The notes beneath the pieces are model-generated. The model was not told the origin of the DNA and made no database searches. It worked only from the letters and a program-made list of their open reading frames with translations. The translations under genes and the position numbers were made by a program. From contig JAUSIP010000001.1 in the NCBI GenBank assembly GCA_030648005.1, forward strand, positions 6,662 through 70,661: DNA of 64,000 nt, read 5' to 3'. Positions within the stretch are counted from its first letter, which is position 1; the number at the start of each line of letters is the position of its first letter. Origin of the DNA: a bacterium (GTDB lineage: Bacteria > Patescibacteriota > Minisyncoccia > Phycocordibacterales > UBA12445). Positions 9,813 through 57,291 of this stretch are shown here, one piece after another.

Positions 9813-10415
9813 CTAACCTTCATGTTCAGCCGGGATGGCATCGAGATCGTCGCCGTTCATGTTCGGCTTCGGCGGAATGGGGTACTTGCCAATCGAGAGT
9901 TCAGTATCCGTAATCGCCGACACGGGCTCGGCTTGGACTCCCGATGAAGGGGGTAGCGCGTACTTCTTGACGTAGAAGATCTGTTCGCCGGGGGTGTACT
10001 CATACTTGTCGAGCATGACCACCATCGGTTTCTCCTCGAAGACGACCCGATGATCGATATCCAACTCGTGGAGATTGGGACTGATCTCTCGCATCAAGGT
10101 CGAGATAACCTGACGCACCGGAATGTCCAGGCCGAACTCCTTCCAAATACGGCCGCCATCCGCCTTGACCACCCACTCCTTGAGGTTCAAGTAGTTGGCA
10201 CCGCGTTCGACCTGCTTCCACATGACGCGGAAGTAGTCGCCGGACCGCTGGAGCATCAAGTAGACGAAGTCCGACCGGAAGTCATGGTGACCTTGGAACT
10301 TCCGCACCCTGACCTCCAGACACATGACGGCCACCTTCTTGTCATCGGAGCCAGGTGGGACCATGTACTCGACCAGCGATGCAAGAGCCGAGGGCAGATC
10401 AATAGATGGTCTCAT
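9813..10415 (-). CDS. hypothetical protein, compositionally foreign (GC-rich)
   Basis: 200-aa ORF, visibly GC-richer than its flanks, with its own terminator, inserted between pth and lepB; no family recognised. Confidence 0.55.
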   Translation of the reverse strand: MRPSIDLPSALASLVEYMVPPGSDDKKVAVMCLEVRVRKFQGHHDFRSDFVYLMLQRSGDYFRVMWKQVERGANYLNLKEWVVKADGGRIWKEFGLDIPVRQVISTLMREISPNLHELDIDHRVVFEEKPMVVMLDKYEYTPGEQIFYVKKYALPPSSGVQAEPVSAITDTELSIGKYPIPPKPNMNGDDLDAIPAEHEG

Positions 10416-19336: not shown

Positions 19337-19876
19337 TTACAGTTTTTTTTGAAGAAATTCCCTGAGCTTCTTCTCGTTGGTGATTGGTTCAACTCTAACA
19401 GTCTCCGGATAGATAGGATGACCCGCTTCGTCCTCCTCGTAATCCTTATGTCCATCAATATCTTCCTTACTCAAACCAGCCTGCATAAGAAACTCTTCAA
19501 TGCTCTCTTTGGTATAGCCAGACCATGGAAGATCGGAGTTAGCATACATCAACCTTCCGCACTTGAGGATATTTGAGTAAATAGCATCAGCGTTCTGAAG
19601 AACTCTCTGGCGCAAGATCTCGTGTTCAAGATTTTTGATCCTCTTGTTGTAAGTTGTCTTACCGGCATGCCTTTCGTTGTATTGCGCGATCTGATCATCT
19701 GTGAAGCATCGTTCTAGGAGTTCAGCGAGCTTCCTGACCGGATCCTTGATCAGCTTGAAGCCACGTCGCTCAACAACCTCGACATAAGCTTCCAGATCTG
19801 CCCATGCATCCACGAACCGCTCCTCGATCTCTTCTGTATCTTCCTGAGACAAAACTTCGACTTCTGATGTACTCAT
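19337..19876 (-). CDS. hypothetical acidic protein
   Basis: Start at the internal ATG 19876 with RBS GGAGGT; terminator hairpin 19297..19315; no family recognised. Confidence 0.5.
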   Translation of the reverse strand: MSTSEVEVLSQEDTEEIEERFVDAWADLEAYVEVVERRGFKLIKDPVRKLAELLERCFTDDQIAQYNERHAGKTTYNKRIKNLEHEILRQRVLQNADAIYSNILKCGRLMYANSDLPWSGYTKESIEEFLMQAGLSKEDIDGHKDYEEDEAGHPIYPETVRVEPITNEKKLREFLQKKL

Positions 19877-20011
19877 TTGGGACCTCCTCTTTATTGACAA
19901 ACGGCTCTTTTCCAATAGCAAGATAGCATTAAAAAGTCCGAGTGGCAACTATGTTCGAAGTCGGTCTTCGTGCATCTTAAACTACAAAATATAGCTTAGA
20001 ATTTTGGCAAT

Positions 20012-20047
20012 AAAAAAACCGGTTGCAAACAGAGTGTCTGCAACCGG
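20012..20047 (-). terminator. rho-independent terminator of the E2-E1-Ubl operon
   Basis: Perfect 9-bp stem CCGGTTGCA/TGCAACCGG followed by a T7 run on the minus strand, 23 nt after the Ubl stop. Confidence 0.8.
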
Positions 20048-20069
20048 GCGTGGTATTCACTATGAGCTC

Positions 20070-20309
20070 CTAAGAACCTTGCGGGCGTTCGTGAACTGCG
20101 ACGATCTTCGATGCTGAAGTCACGCGCGTTTCAGGCGTGGCAGGCTTGCCGTCGACCGACAGGTTCTTCTTGTCGAGGCTGACTCCAGCCTCCTTGAGCA
20201 CCTCGGCGAGCGTGGCGCTCGCTTCGATAGTGACCGTCTTGGTGATCGGTTTTCCCGAAGTGGGGACGACCTCAAGTTGAACTTCGAAAGTCTTCTTGGT
20301 CTTGGTCAT
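20070..20309 (-). CDS. small ubiquitin-like (beta-grasp) protein, C-terminus ...HERPQGS
   Basis: 79 aa; predicted beta-beta-alpha-beta-beta pattern; last gene of the operon with the E1-like gene; RBS GAGGGGG; GC-rich. Confidence 0.5.
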   Translation of the reverse strand: MTKTKKTFEVQLEVVPTSGKPITKTVTIEASATLAEVLKEAGVSLDKKNLSVDGKPATPETRVTSASKIVAVHERPQGS

Positions 20310-20353
20310 TTTCCTTCACCCCCTCTTTTTTGTCTTGTTTTTTTTGTAAAGAA

Positions 20354-20992
20354 CTATACTTCTTGAAAGTACCCGCACAACATCCTCAGATGCCGCTTGA
20401 ATTTACTCTGTTTGAAGAACATTGTCAAGGCAGCGCAGGCGACGTTGGCCGCGGTACTGCTGATGTGTATCGCACCATGGTTGCCGCACATAGACCGGGT
20501 AGCTTCTACCGAGGAATATCGGATGAAATTCTCATAATAATCCACGTCATCCTTATCGCACGTGCGAATAGCGAACACTTCGATATATTCAGCGTTGATT
20601 CTCGTATCAACGAAGATCCCAACGAGAGGATTGTCCTTAACAGCCTTCCAGATGAGCTGGCGCGCCTCCATAGTATCAACACAAGCAACGACCGCGGTTT
20701 TGAGCGGTTCACCGTTGTACATCTTGGGTATAACCCTAATCTGAACTCCTGACGCTTCTTCCACGATCTCACTTAACGCTTCGACCTTCAGCCTCAAAAT
20801 ATGCTTCTGCCGGAACTCCGACATCGGCACGTTATGCGAGGCCACTTCGTCGCCATCCAAAACCGTAAGATCAGCGCACCCTTCTCTGGCGAGCATGATA
20901 GTGAGTCTACTGCCGACTGAACCGGCGCCAATGATAGTAACAGGTCGGAAGAGATCCGGATCAACGATCTTATTCTGTGCATCGAAATTCAT
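20354..20992 (-). CDS. E1-like ThiF/MoeB-family adenylyltransferase
   Basis: VTIIGAGSVGSRLTIMLAREGCADLTVLDGDEV Rossmann/ATP-binding signature; start ATG 20992 overlaps the upstream gene's stop (ATGA). Confidence 0.75.
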   Translation of the reverse strand: MNFDAQNKIVDPDLFRPVTIIGAGSVGSRLTIMLAREGCADLTVLDGDEVASHNVPMSEFRQKHILRLKVEALSEIVEEASGVQIRVIPKMYNGEPLKTAVVACVDTMEARQLIWKAVKDNPLVGIFVDTRINAEYIEVFAIRTCDKDDVDYYENFIRYSSVEATRSMCGNHGAIHISSTAANVACAALTMFFKQSKFKRHLRMLCGYFQEV

Positions 20993-22413
20993 TGTCCTAT
21001 GCAAGGCACACCTCCTTCGTCCAGTATCACCTTGATCGGCCATTCAGCGATCTTGTGCAGAGCCGTCTGATCTTCGTAACCTTCGAAAAGCCAACGAGTG
21101 AAGTAGCCGATGCCGTCTGCGTATCGATGCTCCTTGATCGCATCCTTGATCGCCGTGCCGGCATTGCCAAAACAGGGCGTGCCTTCTTTATTGATATGAG
21201 GATGAGGAACTCCTTCCGGATGAAACCGATCGAGACTCCAGATATAGAAGTCGCCGTTTCTATGGATTGCGAAAGCGAACCTGCCAAGCTGATGAGTATT
21301 GCCCGCATTAGTAATGTCAGCTCCGATAGTAGTAACGCGGATCATATCTTCAGCAAGCGATAGTTCCGATACATATGGATTCGAACGGATCCTGCGCCAC
21401 TGCCCCTTGAGAGATCTGAACAATTCATCTTTGGGCAGGGCATTGCTTACTGTCTTACTCAAGCGCTGAAGATTGAAACATTCACGCTCATTGATAGCCA
21501 GAGTCATCCTCAGATCTTCAATCTCTTGTTGTATCTTCTGCACCTCTCTGTCTATGCCGCCACTGACGGTGCTTATCCATTTTGTTGTAACGTCGACAAA
21601 CCTCTTGCGATTCAGACGGAGCATTTTGTCAGATGGCTTAGCTCCACCTTGCAGAGCCTGATAACGGCGTAGGGTCACAGCCAGAGCATTATCCAAAATT
21701 TTCAAACTAGTAAGAGAATTGAAAAATTCAACCACGCAAAACAGAAAATACCAGTTATTGCCAACTATCTGCGCAAGATCGTTCTCCCCGTCGCCGACGA
21801 ACTCCCCTCTTCCGGGAGTACCGGAGAAGGTCAGAACACCGTTGCCTTCTTTGGTATCCAACTGAAGGTCGAAGGCGCGGCGTAGATACTTGCTCTTTGA
21901 ATATCCGGGCGAATAGCTCCAAGGGAAAATATTGATCAGATTAGGCTTGTCGGGTAGCGGAGGCCTACCTATATCGCGTTTCTCGGCGTAAAAATCTATG
22001 TCCAATCCTCCGGCAAGCCTAGAGAAATTCTCTAAGATAATTCTGATGCTGGAATAGGGAGCTTCTTCGATCGTCTTCTTATCGTCTTCCTTCTCTGACA
22101 AGGGGATGATCCTGATATTTCCGGTCTTGATCCCAACGTACGGAACAGTGCGATTGCCCCACTTGGCATTCTTGGCATTAATGACATTTGGGTAAGGAGC
22201 TTGCCCGATACCGACAATCAGAAGAACGTCAATGAAGGTCATCCTCGCTTCCGCCACATTCGCGCACTGGAAGATGTAAGCATCGAGCTCGTATGGCCCT
22301 ACTCGTACTGTCCGCCTCTTGAAAGGGATCCCCTTCTTTGTGAACTCTTGAGTATGAGGCTCAGCCACGAGAGCCGGCAAGGCGAAAATAGGTGTTTTCA
22401 GTCCGGGAACCAT
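20989..22413 (-). CDS. E2-like (UBC-fold) protein with ~330-aa N-terminal domain of unknown function
   Basis: C-terminal HPHINKEGTPC matches the UBC active site HPNINSNGSIC with identical spacing; RBS AAGGAGG; first gene of the operon. Confidence 0.6.
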   Translation of the reverse strand: MVPGLKTPIFALPALVAEPHTQEFTKKGIPFKRRTVRVGPYELDAYIFQCANVAEARMTFIDVLLIVGIGQAPYPNVINAKNAKWGNRTVPYVGIKTGNIRIIPLSEKEDDKKTIEEAPYSSIRIILENFSRLAGGLDIDFYAEKRDIGRPPLPDKPNLINIFPWSYSPGYSKSKYLRRAFDLQLDTKEGNGVLTFSGTPGRGEFVGDGENDLAQIVGNNWYFLFCVVEFFNSLTSLKILDNALAVTLRRYQALQGGAKPSDKMLRLNRKRFVDVTTKWISTVSGGIDREVQKIQQEIEDLRMTLAINERECFNLQRLSKTVSNALPKDELFRSLKGQWRRIRSNPYVSELSLAEDMIRVTTIGADITNAGNTHQLGRFAFAIHRNGDFYIWSLDRFHPEGVPHPHINKEGTPCFGNAGTAIKDAIKEHRYADGIGYFTRWLFEGYEDQTALHKIAEWPIKVILDEGGVPCIGQ

Positions 22414-22527
22414 CTCTGCCTCCTTTGGCCCTCCGTAGCTTTATGCGTAGGGGGCCTTTATTTCGTACAGTGTCAAGGAGCACTCAAACCGATGAGATAA
22501 TATCAGGAATAATTGATTTAGTCAATG

Positions 22528-22614
22528 CGGAGGTGGGAGGATTTGAACCTCCGATACCCTTTCGGGTATGCCAGTTTTCGAAACTGGTGATTTCAACCAC
22601 TCACCCACACCTCC
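22528..22614 (-). tRNA. tRNA-Ser (anticodon CGA), type II with long variable arm
   Basis: Hand fold: acceptor GGAGGTG/CACCTCC, anticodon loop TTCGAAA, T-arm GGAGGTTCAAATCCTCC, discriminator G, no encoded CCA. Confidence 0.85.
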
Positions 22615-22685
22615 AAGTTTAAGCGTTTAAATACTAACAGCATTTTGCATTTTTGACAAAATTTAGTATTATAACGAAACCTAAC

Positions 22686-22793
22686 GGCCCTATCGTTCCC
22701 GATTTTATTACGATTTCGTTACAGCGAAATCTCCATAAAATCGAGGATCCTCGACCCTGTGGGGTCGGGACTATCGGTTAGGACACGGCCTTT
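22686..22793 (+). pseudogene. orphan tRNA-Glu 5' half (to the anticodon loop) interrupted in the D-arm by a MITE
   Basis: GGCCCTATCGT + 75-bp element + CTATCGGTTAGGACACGGCCTTT is identical to positions 1-34 of tRNA-Glu at 22931; no 3' half follows. Confidence 0.7.
22697..22771. repeat. miniature inverted-repeat element, copy 2 (TCCCGATTTT...GGGGTCGGGAC)
   Basis: Shares its ends and the internal ATCGAGGATCC core with the copies at 2723 and 53662. Confidence 0.7.
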
Positions 22794-22915
22794 GAGAGGT
22801 GAGGATGGGGTAAGGGGTCCCATCCGCAAGACCTTTTGAGGTAGTTTGCGAGCTAGTGAAGCAAAATATCCAAAAGGTGTACTGCTCCCGTAGGGAGGGA
22901 AACGCAGTGAGGCAT
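22794..22915 (+). ncRNA. conserved structured element X between the orphan 5' half and tRNA-Glu
   Basis: GAGGTGAGG-hairpin-CGCAAGACCTTTTGAG...AATATCCAAAAGGTGTACTG-hairpin. A homolog lies upstream of tRNA-Gly (33021..33122) and shows compensatory hairpin changes. Confidence 0.5.
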
Positions 22916-22930
22916 TTTAAAAAACTATAC

Positions 22931-23002
22931 GGCCCTATCGTCTATCGGTTAGGACACGGCCTTTTCAAGGCTGGAAGCAGAGTTCGACTCTCTGTAGGGT
23001 CA
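22931..23002 (+). tRNA. tRNA-Glu (anticodon TTC)
   Basis: Hand fold: acceptor GGCCCTA/TAGGGTC, anticodon stem CGGCC/GGCTG, loop TTTTCAA, T-arm CAGAGTTCGACTCTCTG. Confidence 0.85.
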
Positions 23003-23139
23003 TTGCGAAGCAAGGAGACTAAGTGAATGAACTGCTTCATTCACGCCAGAGAGTCGAAGCCCGATTGAGATAGTTTATGATTCCGAGTTTATCGAGGAAG
23101 AAATAAAATATCCAATTGGGGTACTGTTCCTGTAAGGAA

Positions 23140-23158
23140 CGACTCTCTGTAGGGTCAT
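23140..23158 (+). repeat. direct orphan copy of the tRNA-Glu 3' end (CGACTCTCTGTAGGGTCAT)
   Basis: 19-nt identity with 22984..23003; preceded by the GGGTACTG-hairpin motif. Confidence 0.8.
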
Positions 23159-23172
23159 CGCGAAATACCACC

Positions 23173-32367: not shown

Positions 32368-32823
32368 TTACAGGTGACTGCTGGTCTCGGCAGTCGGCTG
32401 TCCGACAACCCCGTCCGTAGGCATGGATATGTCGAGCACCAGGTTCTCACAGGCCTTCGTCCATTCGGGTGTTCCCTGGTGATAAGCCTCGATCTTGCCC
32501 TTCTCCATCTGCCAAGAATTGCTGGGATTCAGATCGTCGAAGTCATATTCCAGATGAGAGATCCTTAGACCACGGAAGCTATTGAATCTTACGATCCAGA
32601 GCTTGTCGTTGTATCGGACCACATCTCCCGGCTTCAGGCTTCTAACCGTCTCGCCGTTCAGCATGGTCTGATGACCCTTACGCGCCCGTTCCCGAGCCTC
32701 GTCCATCTGCTCGGCTGGAGAGCGGGTATCCTTGTTGTGGAAGACCTCGCCAACAAGAACAAGGCAAAACAAGAGATAGATCATTATATAAAGAAGCTCC
32801 CACACCTTTTGACCCAGAGACAT
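32368..32823 (-). CDS. hypothetical membrane-anchored protein (GC-elevated)
   Basis: 151 aa, N-terminal TM helix; no family recognised. Confidence 0.45.
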   Translation of the reverse strand: MSLGQKVWELLYIMIYLLFCLVLVGEVFHNKDTRSPAEQMDEARERARKGHQTMLNGETVRSLKPGDVVRYNDKLWIVRFNSFRGLRISHLEYDFDDLNPSNSWQMEKGKIEAYHQGTPEWTKACENLVLDISMPTDGVVGQPTAETSSHL

Positions 32824-46684: not shown

Positions 46685-47278
46685 TTAAGGGCAGGGTGCG
46701 AATTCGCAGTTGGGGCCGGTGCGCCCGACAGCCGAGCCGTCAGGGCAGATCTTCGCCTCCATAGTACATGCCCTCATAGGCGGAGGTGTAGGCAGCGGCG
46801 GGGTCGGCATACTAACACCGCCTGTAGTTAGGTCGAAAAACACCGGTATCTCGAGAACGTCGTCGTGCTCGGGCAAGCCGGAAGGGTTGTCCTTCCGGAG
46901 TATCAGGGTTCCCCTGTTGCTTGATGCTTTTTTGTTGACCGTAAAAGTAATGGTGGCTTCGTACAGCACGAACTCCGGCGTCATCCACTCGCTCTGTGCT
47001 GTAGCAAAACTCTCCACCAGCACCTTGCCGTCCGCGTCGAGTAAGGTCACCGGGAAGCTGGCTTCAAAGTACCAGTTGCCTCTTGCCTCGCCTCTTATAA
47101 CGAGCGGGCTCTTGATGACTTGGTTCGGGCGCGGAGAGTCGACGCGGATAAGGTTCGATTTTTCATTTTCGAAATTCGTCACAACCGAAGCCGGCGCCTC
47201 TTTTCGCGCCATTTTTAACCCAACGCCAAGACCTGCGATAAATAATAGAGTGATAACTACTGCTAAAATATTTTTCAT
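46685..47278 (-). CDS. secreted Gmad2 immunoglobulin-like domain protein
   Basis: Start ATG 47278; SPLVIRGEARGNWYFEASFPVTLLDADGKVL pattern. Confidence 0.5.
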   Translation of the reverse strand: MKNILAVVITLLFIAGLGVGLKMARKEAPASVVTNFENEKSNLIRVDSPRPNQVIKSPLVIRGEARGNWYFEASFPVTLLDADGKVLVESFATAQSEWMTPEFVLYEATITFTVNKKASSNRGTLILRKDNPSGLPEHDDVLEIPVFFDLTTGGVSMPTPPLPTPPPMRACTMEAKICPDGSAVGRTGPNCEFAPCP

Positions 47279-47294
47279 AAGGCTAATTATAGCT

Positions 47295-48539
47295 CTAGGC
47301 ATTGCTCCCCGCAATGTAACCTGTTGTCCAGCAGAGCTGGAGAGAGTAGCCACCAGAAGGCCTGTTGATGTGCAGCAGGTCGCCAGTAATAAATAGATTA
47401 TCGAGCTTCAAAGAACGCATAGTTTTAGTGTCTACTTCGTCGAGTACCACTCCCCCGTCGGCGGCCACTGCGCGGTCGCTACCCATCAGGCTAGTGATAG
47501 TTACCGGTAGGGATTTCAAAATGCGTACTATCTTTTTCCTCTCTTCAACAATAACGCTGTTTATCTTTTTATCAGGATCAAGTCCATCTATGAGAGAAAG
47601 GATCCTGTCACCGGTGCCCGGTGGGGCAACTTCACGGAAAACATTTTTCAAATTCTTATTTTTGTTAGCATCAAAAAGTTCAATAACTTTCTTCTCTAAA
47701 TCGCCGATATCTAAATCCGGATATGTATCAATAGTAGCTGTAACGACACCGGAACGAAGCAACCCATCAACATCTTTAGCACTGTTCAAGATCAGCGGAC
47801 CGGAGAGACCGAAGTGGGTGAATAGTATCTTACCTGTTTTAGAAAATCTTTTTTTGCTGTCTAAGAAAAAAGTAATCTTCATGGATTCAATAGAAACACC
47901 GGGAAGATCTTTGATCCACCTGTCAGCTACAGCAAGTGGAACAATAGTTGGTGTTGGCGGTACAGTGGTGTGACCGAGAGCGTTCAACCAGTTGAAGCCG
48001 TCGCCTGTAGAACCCGTCTCCGGATGTGAGATTCCGCCAGTAGCTAAGACCACAGACTTGGCTTTATATAAAATTCCATTCGAGATAACGCCTTCAACTT
48101 TATTACCAACAGAAACTATTTTAGAAACCGGCGACATATTCTTCACCACAACACCGTTATCACGAACATAATGCTCCATAACCTTGAAAACATCCAGGGC
48201 CTTTTCTGTCTTAGGGAAAGCACGCTTTTTAGCCTGTACAACAAGCGGGAGACCATGTGATTCAAAAAAGTTGAAAGTCTCCTTAACTCCAAATTGTGAG
48301 AATGAAGAATACAAGAACTGCTCTGCATCGCCGTAATTCTTCAGAAGCGCGCGGATGTCAAACTCGGCATTAGTAATATTGCATCTGCCACCACCGGTGA
48401 TCTTCAACTTCTCACCAAGCAACCTATTTTTTTCCAGTAGCAAAACTTTCTTCCCAAGCTCCCCCGCCCGGCCGGCGGCCATTATACCGGAAGCTCCGCC
48501 CCCGACAACAATGACATCATATTGTTCTTCTGAAGCCAC
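47295..48539 (-). CDS. HI0933/BaiN-like FAD-dependent flavoprotein
   Basis: YDVIVVGGGASGIMAA...GGGRCNITN. Confidence 0.8.
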   Translation of the reverse strand: MASEEQYDVIVVGGGASGIMAAGRAGELGKKVLLLEKNRLLGEKLKITGGGRCNITNAEFDIRALLKNYGDAEQFLYSSFSQFGVKETFNFFESHGLPLVVQAKKRAFPKTEKALDVFKVMEHYVRDNGVVVKNMSPVSKIVSVGNKVEGVISNGILYKAKSVVLATGGISHPETGSTGDGFNWLNALGHTTVPPTPTIVPLAVADRWIKDLPGVSIESMKITFFLDSKKRFSKTGKILFTHFGLSGPLILNSAKDVDGLLRSGVVTATIDTYPDLDIGDLEKKVIELFDANKNKNLKNVFREVAPPGTGDRILSLIDGLDPDKKINSVIVEERKKIVRILKSLPVTITSLMGSDRAVAADGGVVLDEVDTKTMRSLKLDNLFITGDLLHINRPSGGYSLQLCWTTGYIAGSNA

Positions 48540-56799: not shown

Positions 56800-57291
56800 G
56801 TGACTATCAACAATGCATTCAAACTTATCATTGCCATTGCGGTTTCCGAGCTGGCCGGTATCATCGGTTCGGTGTTTACGATTCCGTCCGTTGCCGGTTG
56901 GTACGCCGGGATTGTAAAGCCGGCTCTCAATCCACCGGCGTGGGTGTTCGGGCCGGTCTGGACGACACTATTCGCGCTTATGGGTATCGCGGCGTTCCTG
57001 ATCTGTTCCTCCTACGCTGAAGCTTCGGCGGATAAAAAGAAAGGGATTAAGGTGGCGTTGATATTGTTTGGCATCCAGCTGGTGCTCAACACGCTATGGT
57101 CGATTATCTTTTTCGGCCTGCACAGCCCAGGCGGCGCGCTTGTTGAGATCATATTCCTTTGGCTCGCTATCCTCGCTACAATCATTGCCTTCGCGAAGAT
57201 CTCAAGACCGGCGGCATGGCTTCTGGTGCCCTACATTCTTTGGGTCAGTTTCGCAATGTATCTGAATTATGCGATCTGGTCGTTGAATTGA
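56800..57291 (+). CDS. tspO: TspO/MBR tryptophan-rich sensory protein
   Basis: Five TM helices, GWYAGIVKPALNPPAWVFGPVWTTLF. Confidence 0.8.
   Translation: MTINNAFKLIIAIAVSELAGIIGSVFTIPSVAGWYAGIVKPALNPPAWVFGPVWTTLFALMGIAAFLICSSYAEASADKKKGIKVALILFGIQLVLNTLWSIIFFGLHSPGGALVEIIFLWLAILATIIAFAKISRPAAWLLVPYILWVSFAMYLNYAIWSLN

Follow-up and report, generated by a model that had tools for sequence, protein, structure and literature searches.

Ubiquitin-type conjugation has been demonstrated in bacteria only recently, in type II CBASS (antiphage signaling systems based on cyclic oligonucleotides), Bil and Bub, and the characterized pathways are all tied, or suspected to be tied, to phage defense. Every characterized bacterial ubiquitination-related pathway carries a JAB peptidase or, in Bub, the enzyme BubE (PMC11601596). 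The locus described here is a cassette of three minus-strand genes, running in the same direction from position 22413 to position 20070 of a 64,000-nucleotide stretch (the window) of contig JAUSIP010000001.1 from a patescibacterial genome assembly (GCA_030648005.1), which encodes an E2-like protein of 474 amino acids (aa), a 212-aa activating enzyme (E1) and a 79-aa ubiquitin-like protein (Ubl). With moderate confidence, the cassette is read as a self-contained three-gene Ubl conjugation module, belonging to a family that lies outside curated databases and occurs mainly in metagenome-derived genomes of the Candidate Phyla Radiation (CPR)/Patescibacteria, and from sequence comparison it is classed as a new family of bacterial Ubl conjugation operons. 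Its most distinctive feature, absent from a preliminary description of the same DNA that had filed the operon with the Bub/Bil-type systems, which it called often antiphage, is the invariant C-terminal Gly-Ser of the Ubl.

The closest described systems differ from the cassette in several respects. Bil (Types I and II) resembles it in being a cascade of separate E1, E2 and Ubl, but encodes the JAB/JAMM peptidase BilC in its operon and has a multidomain E1 composed of an inactive and an active adenylation domain and a CYS domain, whereas the cassette has no linked peptidase and a single-domain E1. The Bil E2 carries a CEHH/downstream-His signature and the Bil Ubl has a Gly followed by variable residues (PMC10557695, PMC11601596), of which up to nine, non-conserved, follow the conserved Gly in Type II Bil and are removed by the JAB peptidase of the operon (PMC10557695); in the cassette, the predicted E2 center is a classical H-P-H...C inside a 474-aa protein, the Gly-Ser end is invariant, and neither the E2-like protein nor the Ubl has a PADLOC match. 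Bub (Types I and II, 6E/DUF6527) operates through Ser (E2) and Tyr (E1) oxyesters with no catalytic Cys, always encodes the serine protease BubE, and exhibits Ubl-E2, JAB-E1 or E2-E1 fusions (PMC11601596), in contrast to the cassette with its invariant Cys in the E2-like protein (C414) and in the E1 (C169), no fusions and no DUF6527 (PF20137). In type II CBASS and the 6A-MBL/Pycsar relatives, Cap2 combines E2 and E1 in a fusion protein, has a CD-NTase instead of a Ubl as the protein that it conjugates, and is accompanied by the JAB peptidase Cap3 and an effector, none of which the cassette has; the best PADLOC and NCBIfam matches of its E1 core are of Cap2 type (2.5e-12 and 2.2e-13) but extend over no more than ~65-100 residues of the Rossmann core and fall far short of the cut-off (49.6 versus 320 bits). 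The filing with Bub and Bil is not supported: JAB, BubE and DUF6527 are missing, none of the genes is fused, and the E1 is neither multidomain nor Cys-less.

Other relatives lie outside these pathways. The ThiS-ThiF, MoaD-MoeB, SAMP-UbaA and TtuB-TtuC pairs share with the cassette a small single-domain E1 and a beta-grasp protein, and are the nearest sequence relatives of both, but their modifiers end in Gly-Gly, they have no E2 partner, and sulfur-insertion enzymes are linked or needed; the cassette is always found with an E2-fold protein and a Gly-Ser tail, and no sulfur-pathway genes are linked to it. In the UFM1 system (UBA5/UFC1/UFM1), UBA5 is a minimal homodimeric E1 with a single adenylation domain and the best solved match of the cassette E1 profile (5e-11). 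The UFM1 precursor carries a Gly-Ser-x tail, and the UfSP proteases are dedicated to its removal. No HPN motif is present in UFC1, the top structural matches of the cassette Ubl do not include UFM1, and there is no evidence of specific common ancestry with the UFM1 system beyond the E1 superfamily. MccB and PaaA act on short precursor peptides and have an N-terminal peptide clamp, whereas the cassette E1 starts at the Rossmann fold and its presumed substrate is a folded beta-grasp protein.

The three genes form a conserved unit. Forty related loci were gathered by exact-protein look-ups, a scan of species genomes and a DNA-motif scan of metagenomes, and the E2-like, E1 and Ubl genes lie contiguously in this order on one strand in all 26 distinct loci that have room for three genes, even at ~20% identity (L038). 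The overlap of the E2-like stop with the E1 start often recurs, the genes are otherwise closely spaced, and they are separate, with no fusions. Ten close homologs of the E2-like protein were found with a word-index search, and an HMMER profile search returned 2133 clusters (at 50% identity) with E ≤ 1e-3, a count that may take in unrelated weak matches below the 150 proteins listed, 639 with E ≤ 1e-10 and 152 with E ≤ 1e-30; most of the matches listed have 440-550 aa and are aligned over much of the protein. The named sources, known only by the labels of metagenome-assembled genomes, are Candidatus Lloydbacteria, Uhrbacteria, Parcubacteria and the Patescibacteria group, with a few high-GC bins of larger genomes including one Binatia.

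The E2-like protein has no match in Pfam, NCBIfam, PADLOC, PHROGs or PDB sequences beyond coiled-coil noise, and a Pfam scan of 94 diverse family members found no other domain either, with no UQ_con or Prok-E2_A-E at E ≤ 0.01. An AlphaFold2 (AF2) model from 10 sequences comprises an N-terminal region of ~260 aa, helices at residues 269-343, and a C-terminal helix and beta-meander (348-393) that lead into a loop containing HPEGVPHPHINKEGTPCFGN and then further helices, which is the UBC/RWD superfold of ubiquitin-conjugating (UBC) enzymes. The sequence HPHINKEGTPC (H404 to C414) in this loop has the same spacing of eight from His/Asn to Cys as the UBC signature HPNINSNGSIC, with His in place of Asn, as the preliminary description had noted, and aligns in register with this signature and with HPNIDEKGQVC. 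Among the 94 members, which share ~20% identity, the sole invariant residues are H404, H406, C414, G416, Y446 and W458, while P405 and N417 are conserved in at least 90%. A profile of the last 150 residues (27 loci) gave no significant match to PDB (E ~1), and UBE2L3 accounts for eight of its ten sub-threshold matches, in alignments that run from helix 1 across the meander and set HPHI..G.C against HPNIDEKGQVC; hhalign against UBE2D2 produced the same register with P = 4.7e-4. The C-terminal domain is assigned to the E2 type mainly because the HPN-equivalent motif and the Cys at canonical spacing are invariant; model and alignments together make this a good fold call, though not one beyond doubt, for a domain that is predicted to be catalytically competent. 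The UBC-like fold claimed beforehand was borne out. As to the downstream Trp claimed with it, the invariant Trp residues, W441 and W458, follow the Cys at distances of 27 and 44 residues, which is not where UBC canonically has its Trp.

The N-terminal domain of the E2-like protein contains the conserved motifs FALPA, PW..PPG, G-R-G and Q..GNNWY and the invariant residues F181, G201-R202-G203, Q215, Y222 and L224. No Cys, Ser or His is invariant in its alignments and catalytic-type residues are absent, which favors binding over catalysis, and the domain is proposed to be a module that binds the target or a partner. Its profile has no match whatever in PDB, and Foldseek with the AF2 model of the whole protein found no significant match, only weak PII-like hints. 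The resemblance of PW..PPG to the YPxxPP flap of UBC raised the idea of tandem UBC domains, which was rejected when hhalign of the N-terminal against the C-terminal domain gave a probability of ~1%; a comparison of the first 75 aa with the Ubl profile was not significant (probability 17%), and a hidden peptidase is unlikely, as there is no invariant Cys/Ser/His/Asp triad. The linker between the two domains matches only coiled-coil Pfam families, and weakly. A longer variant of the protein (552-590 aa) is encoded at two pairs of loci (L012/L013 and L039/L040) in high-GC bins of larger genomes, one labeled Candidatus Binatia, on which account the family is not confined to CPR genomes; these loci keep their local neighbors, Exo_endo_phos upstream and AAA_28 and FA_hydroxylase downstream. 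At one metagenome contig (L019, 2-1408) the E2-like gene is split into open reading frames (ORFs) 2-1030 and 1202-1408, and is either a frameshifted pseudogene or an assembly error.

The 212-aa protein scores 46.2 bits with Pfam ThiF (PF00899), for which the cut-off is 28.1, and a profile of 28 family members matches UBA5 and then ThiF (5e-10) in PDB, followed by TcdA, MccB (3e-8), Cap2, UBA6, UBA3 and BubCD, with PaaA at 2e-7, so that its earlier identification as a ThiF/MoeB-type E1 from the signature IIGAGSVGS..VLDGDEV, which is present, is well founded. Partial matches below cut-off were obtained with the PADLOC E1-E2 model and with cap2_3, ThiF and PRTRC-ThiF of NCBIfam, where ThiF scores 39-45 bits and MoeB 18-23 bits against cut-offs of 152-376. 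The protein consists of a single adenylation domain, lacks a second one as well as any CYS, UFD or rhodanese domain, and has 196-227 aa across the family (as called); alignment to solved E1s extends only over the nucleotide-binding core formed by its first ~120 residues, and MccB is aligned only from its residue ~113. Residues invariant in the 28 members are those of GxGxxG (G22, G24, G27), D46, D48, S52-H53-N54, K69, V105-D106, R111 and D129-T130-R131, which include all of the conserved ATP/Mg residues of E1s (GxGxxG, the acidic residue after beta2, the Asn, the Lys and the Asp of (C/T)VD). The enzyme is predicted to be catalytically competent. The Cys of the invariant C169-G170-x-H172 motif is the candidate catalytic thioester residue because of its placement after the adenylation core.

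The closest annotated relatives of this E1, in 71 records that share 28% identity with it across 83-91% of its length, are phage genes labeled "thiamine biosynthesis protein ThiF"; they come from FpV phages of Flavobacterium and from Bacteroides phages, among them the crAss-like genera Kehishuvirus and Kolpuevirus, and are represented by phrog_15670 as well. They were rejected as representatives of the same system, since their neighbors do not match the E2-like or Ubl profiles. In Flavobacterium phage FpV4 (L041, KT876724.1 59980-68495), a neighbor of 289 aa (607-1476) has by eye a Ubl-looking N-terminus and ends in ..FG.

Single-sequence searches with the 79-aa protein yielded only sub-threshold matches to SAMP2 and ThiS-like proteins. 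The top four PDB matches of a ten-sequence profile are SAMP2 (three entries) and the ThiS/MoaD-like PF1061, and the closest relatives by sequence and structure are SAMP2, MoaD, ThiS, SAMP1 and TtuB. An AF2 model from 80 homologs (predicted local distance difference test score, pLDDT, 77) has the order beta-beta-alpha-beta-beta-beta. By this model the protein is a beta-grasp protein, as had been proposed from its pattern. Its length varies from 75 to 98 aa across the family. In all of the Ubls ERP(Q/R/K)GS directly precedes the stop codon; across the 80 sequences no column other than G78 and S79 is invariant, and the Ubl ends in -GS in 26 of 26 complete loci.

The most likely chemistry is Ubl conjugation through Cys thioesters. 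The modifier would be bound by the E1, which is probably homodimeric, as are ThiF, MoeB and UBA5, and would be adenylated by it at the C-terminal carboxylate; the acyl group would then pass as a thioester to Cys169 of the E1 and/or straight to Cys414 of the E2-like protein; and the N-terminal domain of the latter (~260 aa) with its coiled coil would be a built-in adaptor for substrate or partner as the modifier is moved to a target amine. Owing to this built-in adaptor, the E2-like protein would act without an E3. The invariant Cys of each enzyme fits a thioester relay, in contrast to the oxyesters of Bub (PMC11601596). Conjugation by the cassette is itself a prediction from its genes, and the combination of a constant Gly-Ser end with the lack of a linked peptidase implies either that the Ser is part of the activated end or that an unlinked host enzyme would remove it.

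Several observations weigh against this reading. The sequence similarity to UBC is by itself not significant (E ~1, hhalign probability 33%), and the confidence of the AF2 model of the E2-like protein is no more than moderate (mean pLDDT 68.9). In the E1, the C-terminal half is family-specific and could not be aligned to solved E1s. In MoeB/ThiF-type enzymes two arginines, in an N-terminal RxxRQ and in SNLxR, contact the ATP phosphates, and neither is recognizable in the E1 alignments. The modifier has no C-terminal Gly-Gly or free Gly and no processing peptidase is present, while the active sites of solved E1s accommodate a terminal Gly and in Type II Bil one extra residue, a single Ala, blocks adenylation (PMC10557695). 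None of the explanations tried accounts for an invariant extra Ser without a linked peptidase. An interpretation that makes the Ser functional is tentative and on the whole doubtful: the cassette would represent a fourth, mechanistically distinct class of bacterial Ubl conjugation, with a giant E2 that acts as E2/E3 through its N-terminal domain and with housekeeping or regulatory tagging of host proteins in genome-reduced CPR bacteria, rather than phage defense, as its role. The Ubl may then be activated and attached through the Ser carboxylate, or the Gly-Ser bond may be self-activated, by an N-to-O acyl shift or through a Ser-adenylate/beta-lactone-type intermediate; either version would make a processing peptidase unnecessary.

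The genes around the cassette bear on its role. In the window they encode FtsA, FtsZ, UDP-glucose dehydrogenase, a DEAD-box helicase, tRNAs, TsaD and an aminoacyl-tRNA synthetase, and at other loci the flanks encode ribosomal proteins, RF-1, IF3, MreBCD, tRNA synthetases, cell-division proteins and translation factors, with the cassette at a genomic site that is seldom the same in two genomes. Such housekeeping flanks argue against a classical defense island. All-against-all clustering of 737 flanking ORFs (~27 loci) yielded no family in more than three loci, and a conserved fourth gene was therefore rejected; the most frequent neighbors are LexA (three loci), a PilB-type ATPase (three) and DinB (two). 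In the window and in the ~27 related neighborhoods, no JAB, DUF6527/BubE or other peptidase is linked, in agreement with the preliminary description; nor, in the ~27 loci, is any thiamine, molybdopterin or tRNA-thiolation gene, the setting that it had named as pointing to a biosynthetic pair, any CD-NTase or effector, or, across the clusters of flanking ORFs, any exporter or immunity gene. A phage or plasmid origin of the E2-like protein was rejected, as tblastn searches of 50,697 phage and 72,556 plasmid records came back empty and neither a protein pattern nor a DNA motif picked up an E2-like match in IMG/VR. The searched literature, which did not extend to subscription-only papers, contained nothing that links CPR/Patescibacteria with E2-like or Ubl systems and no mention of the motifs ERPQGS or ERPRGS; no Pfam, NCBIfam or PADLOC model and none of the papers searched deals with the E2-like protein. 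The preliminary description's idea of an undescribed variant is supported.

At three of the ~27 loci a LexA gene is found no more than ~3 kb from the cassette, accompanied at two of them by DinB/Pol IV (L010, 2088-2750; L014, 2866-3564 and 1545-2849; L025, 5803-6417 and 3292-4506). This may reflect synteny, or it may hint at expression linked to the SOS response, much as DNA-damage regulators are adjacent to Bub.

The cassette was said to have a GC content above its surroundings, and its value of 0.495 is indeed the maximum among all 2344-nucleotide segments of the window (mean 0.444, standard deviation 0.018); GC content at third codon positions (GC3) is 0.53, 0.59 and 0.70 in its genes, compared to a mean of 0.49 for the ORFs of the window. 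At 18 of 19 loci the cassette exceeds its flanks, by 3.8 points on average and by 13 at most. High expression was rejected as the meaning of high GC3, because high GC3 is otherwise found in the window in accessory or hypothetical genes (TspO, Gmad2, unknowns) and not in translation genes; this, together with the recurrence of the GC excess, argues for and fits horizontal spread of the cassette. These other genes (GC3 0.59-0.75; 9813-10415, 32368-32823 and 46685-47353 on the minus strand, 56800-57291 on the plus strand) encode two proteins without a Pfam match, one TspO/MBR protein and one Gmad2-domain protein, and may be further horizontally acquired genes. The proposal of an integration island at tRNA-Ser stood only in part: tRNA-Ser(CGA) is adjacent and the composition is anomalous, but no repeat of the tRNA-Ser 3' end that bounds the cassette was found in the window, no integrase is encoded among the ORFs that flank it there, and a tRNA adjoins the cassette in only three of 24 loci, a different tRNA each time, so that the island was rejected.

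Which chemistry and which role the cassette has can be weighed against three alternatives. If the Ubl were a sulfur carrier of the ThiS/MoaD/TtuB/Urm1 type, adenylated by the E1 and turned into a thiocarboxylate that serves the thiolation of tRNAs or cofactors, with the large Cys protein as a persulfide relay, the affinities of the Ubl to SAMP2, MoaD, ThiS, SAMP1 and TtuB and of the E1 to ThiF in size and sequence would be explained; SAMPs, Urm1 and TtuB double as sulfur carriers and modifiers (PMC9574740), and a rhodanese-domain gene lies 700 nucleotides from the cassette in the window. That gene is not conserved elsewhere, however, no ThiG, ThiH, MoaE, TtuA, NcsA or rhodanese is linked in the ~27 neighborhoods, the NCBIfam ThiF and MoeB scores are far under their cut-offs, the tail is Gly-Ser instead of Gly-Gly, and a UBC-fold partner with invariant HPH/Cys is always present whereas sulfur-carrier systems have no such partner, all of which makes this alternative rather improbable. 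Very improbable is a C-terminal modification of the MccB/PaaA type, in which the E1 would adenylate the terminal Ser for an intramolecular reaction or for ligation to a small molecule (giving, for example, a beta-lactone or ester, or a nucleotide-peptide) and the large protein would be a scaffold or acceptor: the invariant non-Gly C-terminus recalls the invariant C-terminal Asn of MccA, MccB and PaaA are among the E1 profile matches, and no peptidase exists to expose a Gly, but the substrate is a folded beta-grasp domain of 75-98 aa and not a short peptide, the E1 has no N-terminal peptide clamp, no exporter or immunity gene is linked, and the partner protein has an E2 catalytic center.

The remaining alternative bears on the biological role and does not conflict with the thioester chemistry proposed above: an antiphage or conflict system of the Bil/Bub/CBASS kind, spread horizontally as a defense module, that would put the Ubl on a phage protein or a host signaling protein upon infection. 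All characterized bacterial E1-E2 pathways are in, or suspected of, phage immunity (PMC11601596, PMC10557695), and the GC excess over the flanks, the change of genomic site from genome to genome and the proximity of LexA and DinB at a few loci, which recalls the DNA-damage regulators linked to Bub, would suit such a module. The ribosomal, tRNA-synthetase, cell-division and translation-factor genes on its flanks would not, nor would the lack of a PADLOC match for the E2-like protein and the Ubl, of any JAB, BubE, effector or regulator of the CapW or CapH-CapP type, of any copy in the phage, plasmid and IMG/VR collections, and of an integrase or att repeat; the antiphage context that had been suggested was not upheld, and a defense role is considered unlikely. 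The Ubl conjugation module remains the preferred reading of the cassette.

Features of the cassette and of its expression signals are listed in Table 1. The three genes have the sizes and direction previously given, the ATG of the E1 gene overlaps the TGA of the E2-like gene by four nucleotides (ATGA), as previously read, in CAATGAAT, and the ribosome-binding site and the terminator were likewise confirmed. An alternative E1 reading of 229 aa from 21043 exists, and homologs begin at MNFDQQ, which is the start of the 212-aa reading. The terminator stem has 13 pairs including G-T, nine of them perfect, with a loop of three nucleotides, and the promoter-like site is situated between tRNA-Ser and the operon.

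Table 1. Positions of genes, protein regions and predicted expression signals in the window.
Feature	Position	Strand	Basis or remark
E2-like gene, 474 aa	20989-22413	-	ORF list and sequence
N-terminal orphan domain, aa 1-~262	21628-22413	-	alignments
Long helical, coiled-coil-like linker, aa ~263-345	21379-21627	-	AF2 helices 269-323 and 329-343
UBC/RWD-fold domain (predicted), aa ~346-474	20992-21378	-	helix, beta-meander, HPH loop, Cys, 2-3 helices
Predicted E2 active center, H404-P405-H406-x7-C414-F-G416-N417	21163-21204	-	conservation
E1 gene, 212 aa, ThiF/UBA5-like, minimal single-domain	20354-20992	-	ORF list and sequence
E1 motif C169-G170-x-H172, candidate thioester Cys	20477-20488	-	invariant in 28 E1s
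Ubl gene, 79 aa, beta-grasp of ThiS/MoaD/SAMP type	20070-20309	-	ORF list and sequence
Ubl tail E-R-P-Q-G-S then stop (Gly78-Ser79 end)	20073-20090	-	80 homologs and 26 loci
Shine-Dalgarno AAGGAGG, 5 nucleotides before the E2-like ATG	22419-22425	-	read from sequence
Promoter-like site TTGACT-17-TATTAT, TG-extended, sigma-70-like (predicted)	22497-22525	-	consensus scan, 10/12 matches
Intrinsic terminator, stem 20019-20047, then T-run to 20009	20009-20047	-	13-pair stem, 3-nucleotide loop
tRNA-Ser(CGA), 113 nucleotides upstream of the operon	22527-22614	-	same strand as the cassette

Two further observations concern the immediate surroundings. Directly downstream of the cassette, an ORF of 203 aa (19337-19948, minus strand) has no family match; its C-terminal ~90 aa resemble, by eye, a 297-aa protein in the equivalent position at one related locus (L002, 3629-4522), which likewise has a DEAD-box helicase near its cassette. 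As the ORF was not found at other loci, it looks like local synteny of two related genomes and not a fourth gene of the cassette. Upstream, partial copies of segments of tRNA-Glu (22931-23002) lie on both sides of this tRNA within 22677-23164: 22942-22964 is identical to 22771-22793 (23 nucleotides, 100%), 22985-23009 at the 3' end matches 23140-23164 at 96%, and further repeat pairs nearby are 22677-22696 with 22922-22941 and 22858-22896 with 23100-23138. By their sequence, these repeats in the intergenic zone of tRNA-Ser and tRNA-Glu look like pseudo-tRNA or att-like remnants.

The cassette family is large, with hundreds to thousands of sequence clusters, and is concentrated in CPR/Patescibacteria. 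Its parts are reduced to the minimum possible, a small E1, an E2-fold protein and a Ubl, one of each, with no peptidase and with a modifier that always ends in Gly-Ser. If the cassette does conjugate its Ubl, it would show how little machinery a ubiquitin-like cascade needs, provide a tractable E3-independent E2 with a new substrate-binding domain, pose the chemical question of how a Ser-terminated Ubl is activated, and add a system of post-translational tagging to organisms of which the cell biology is almost unknown.

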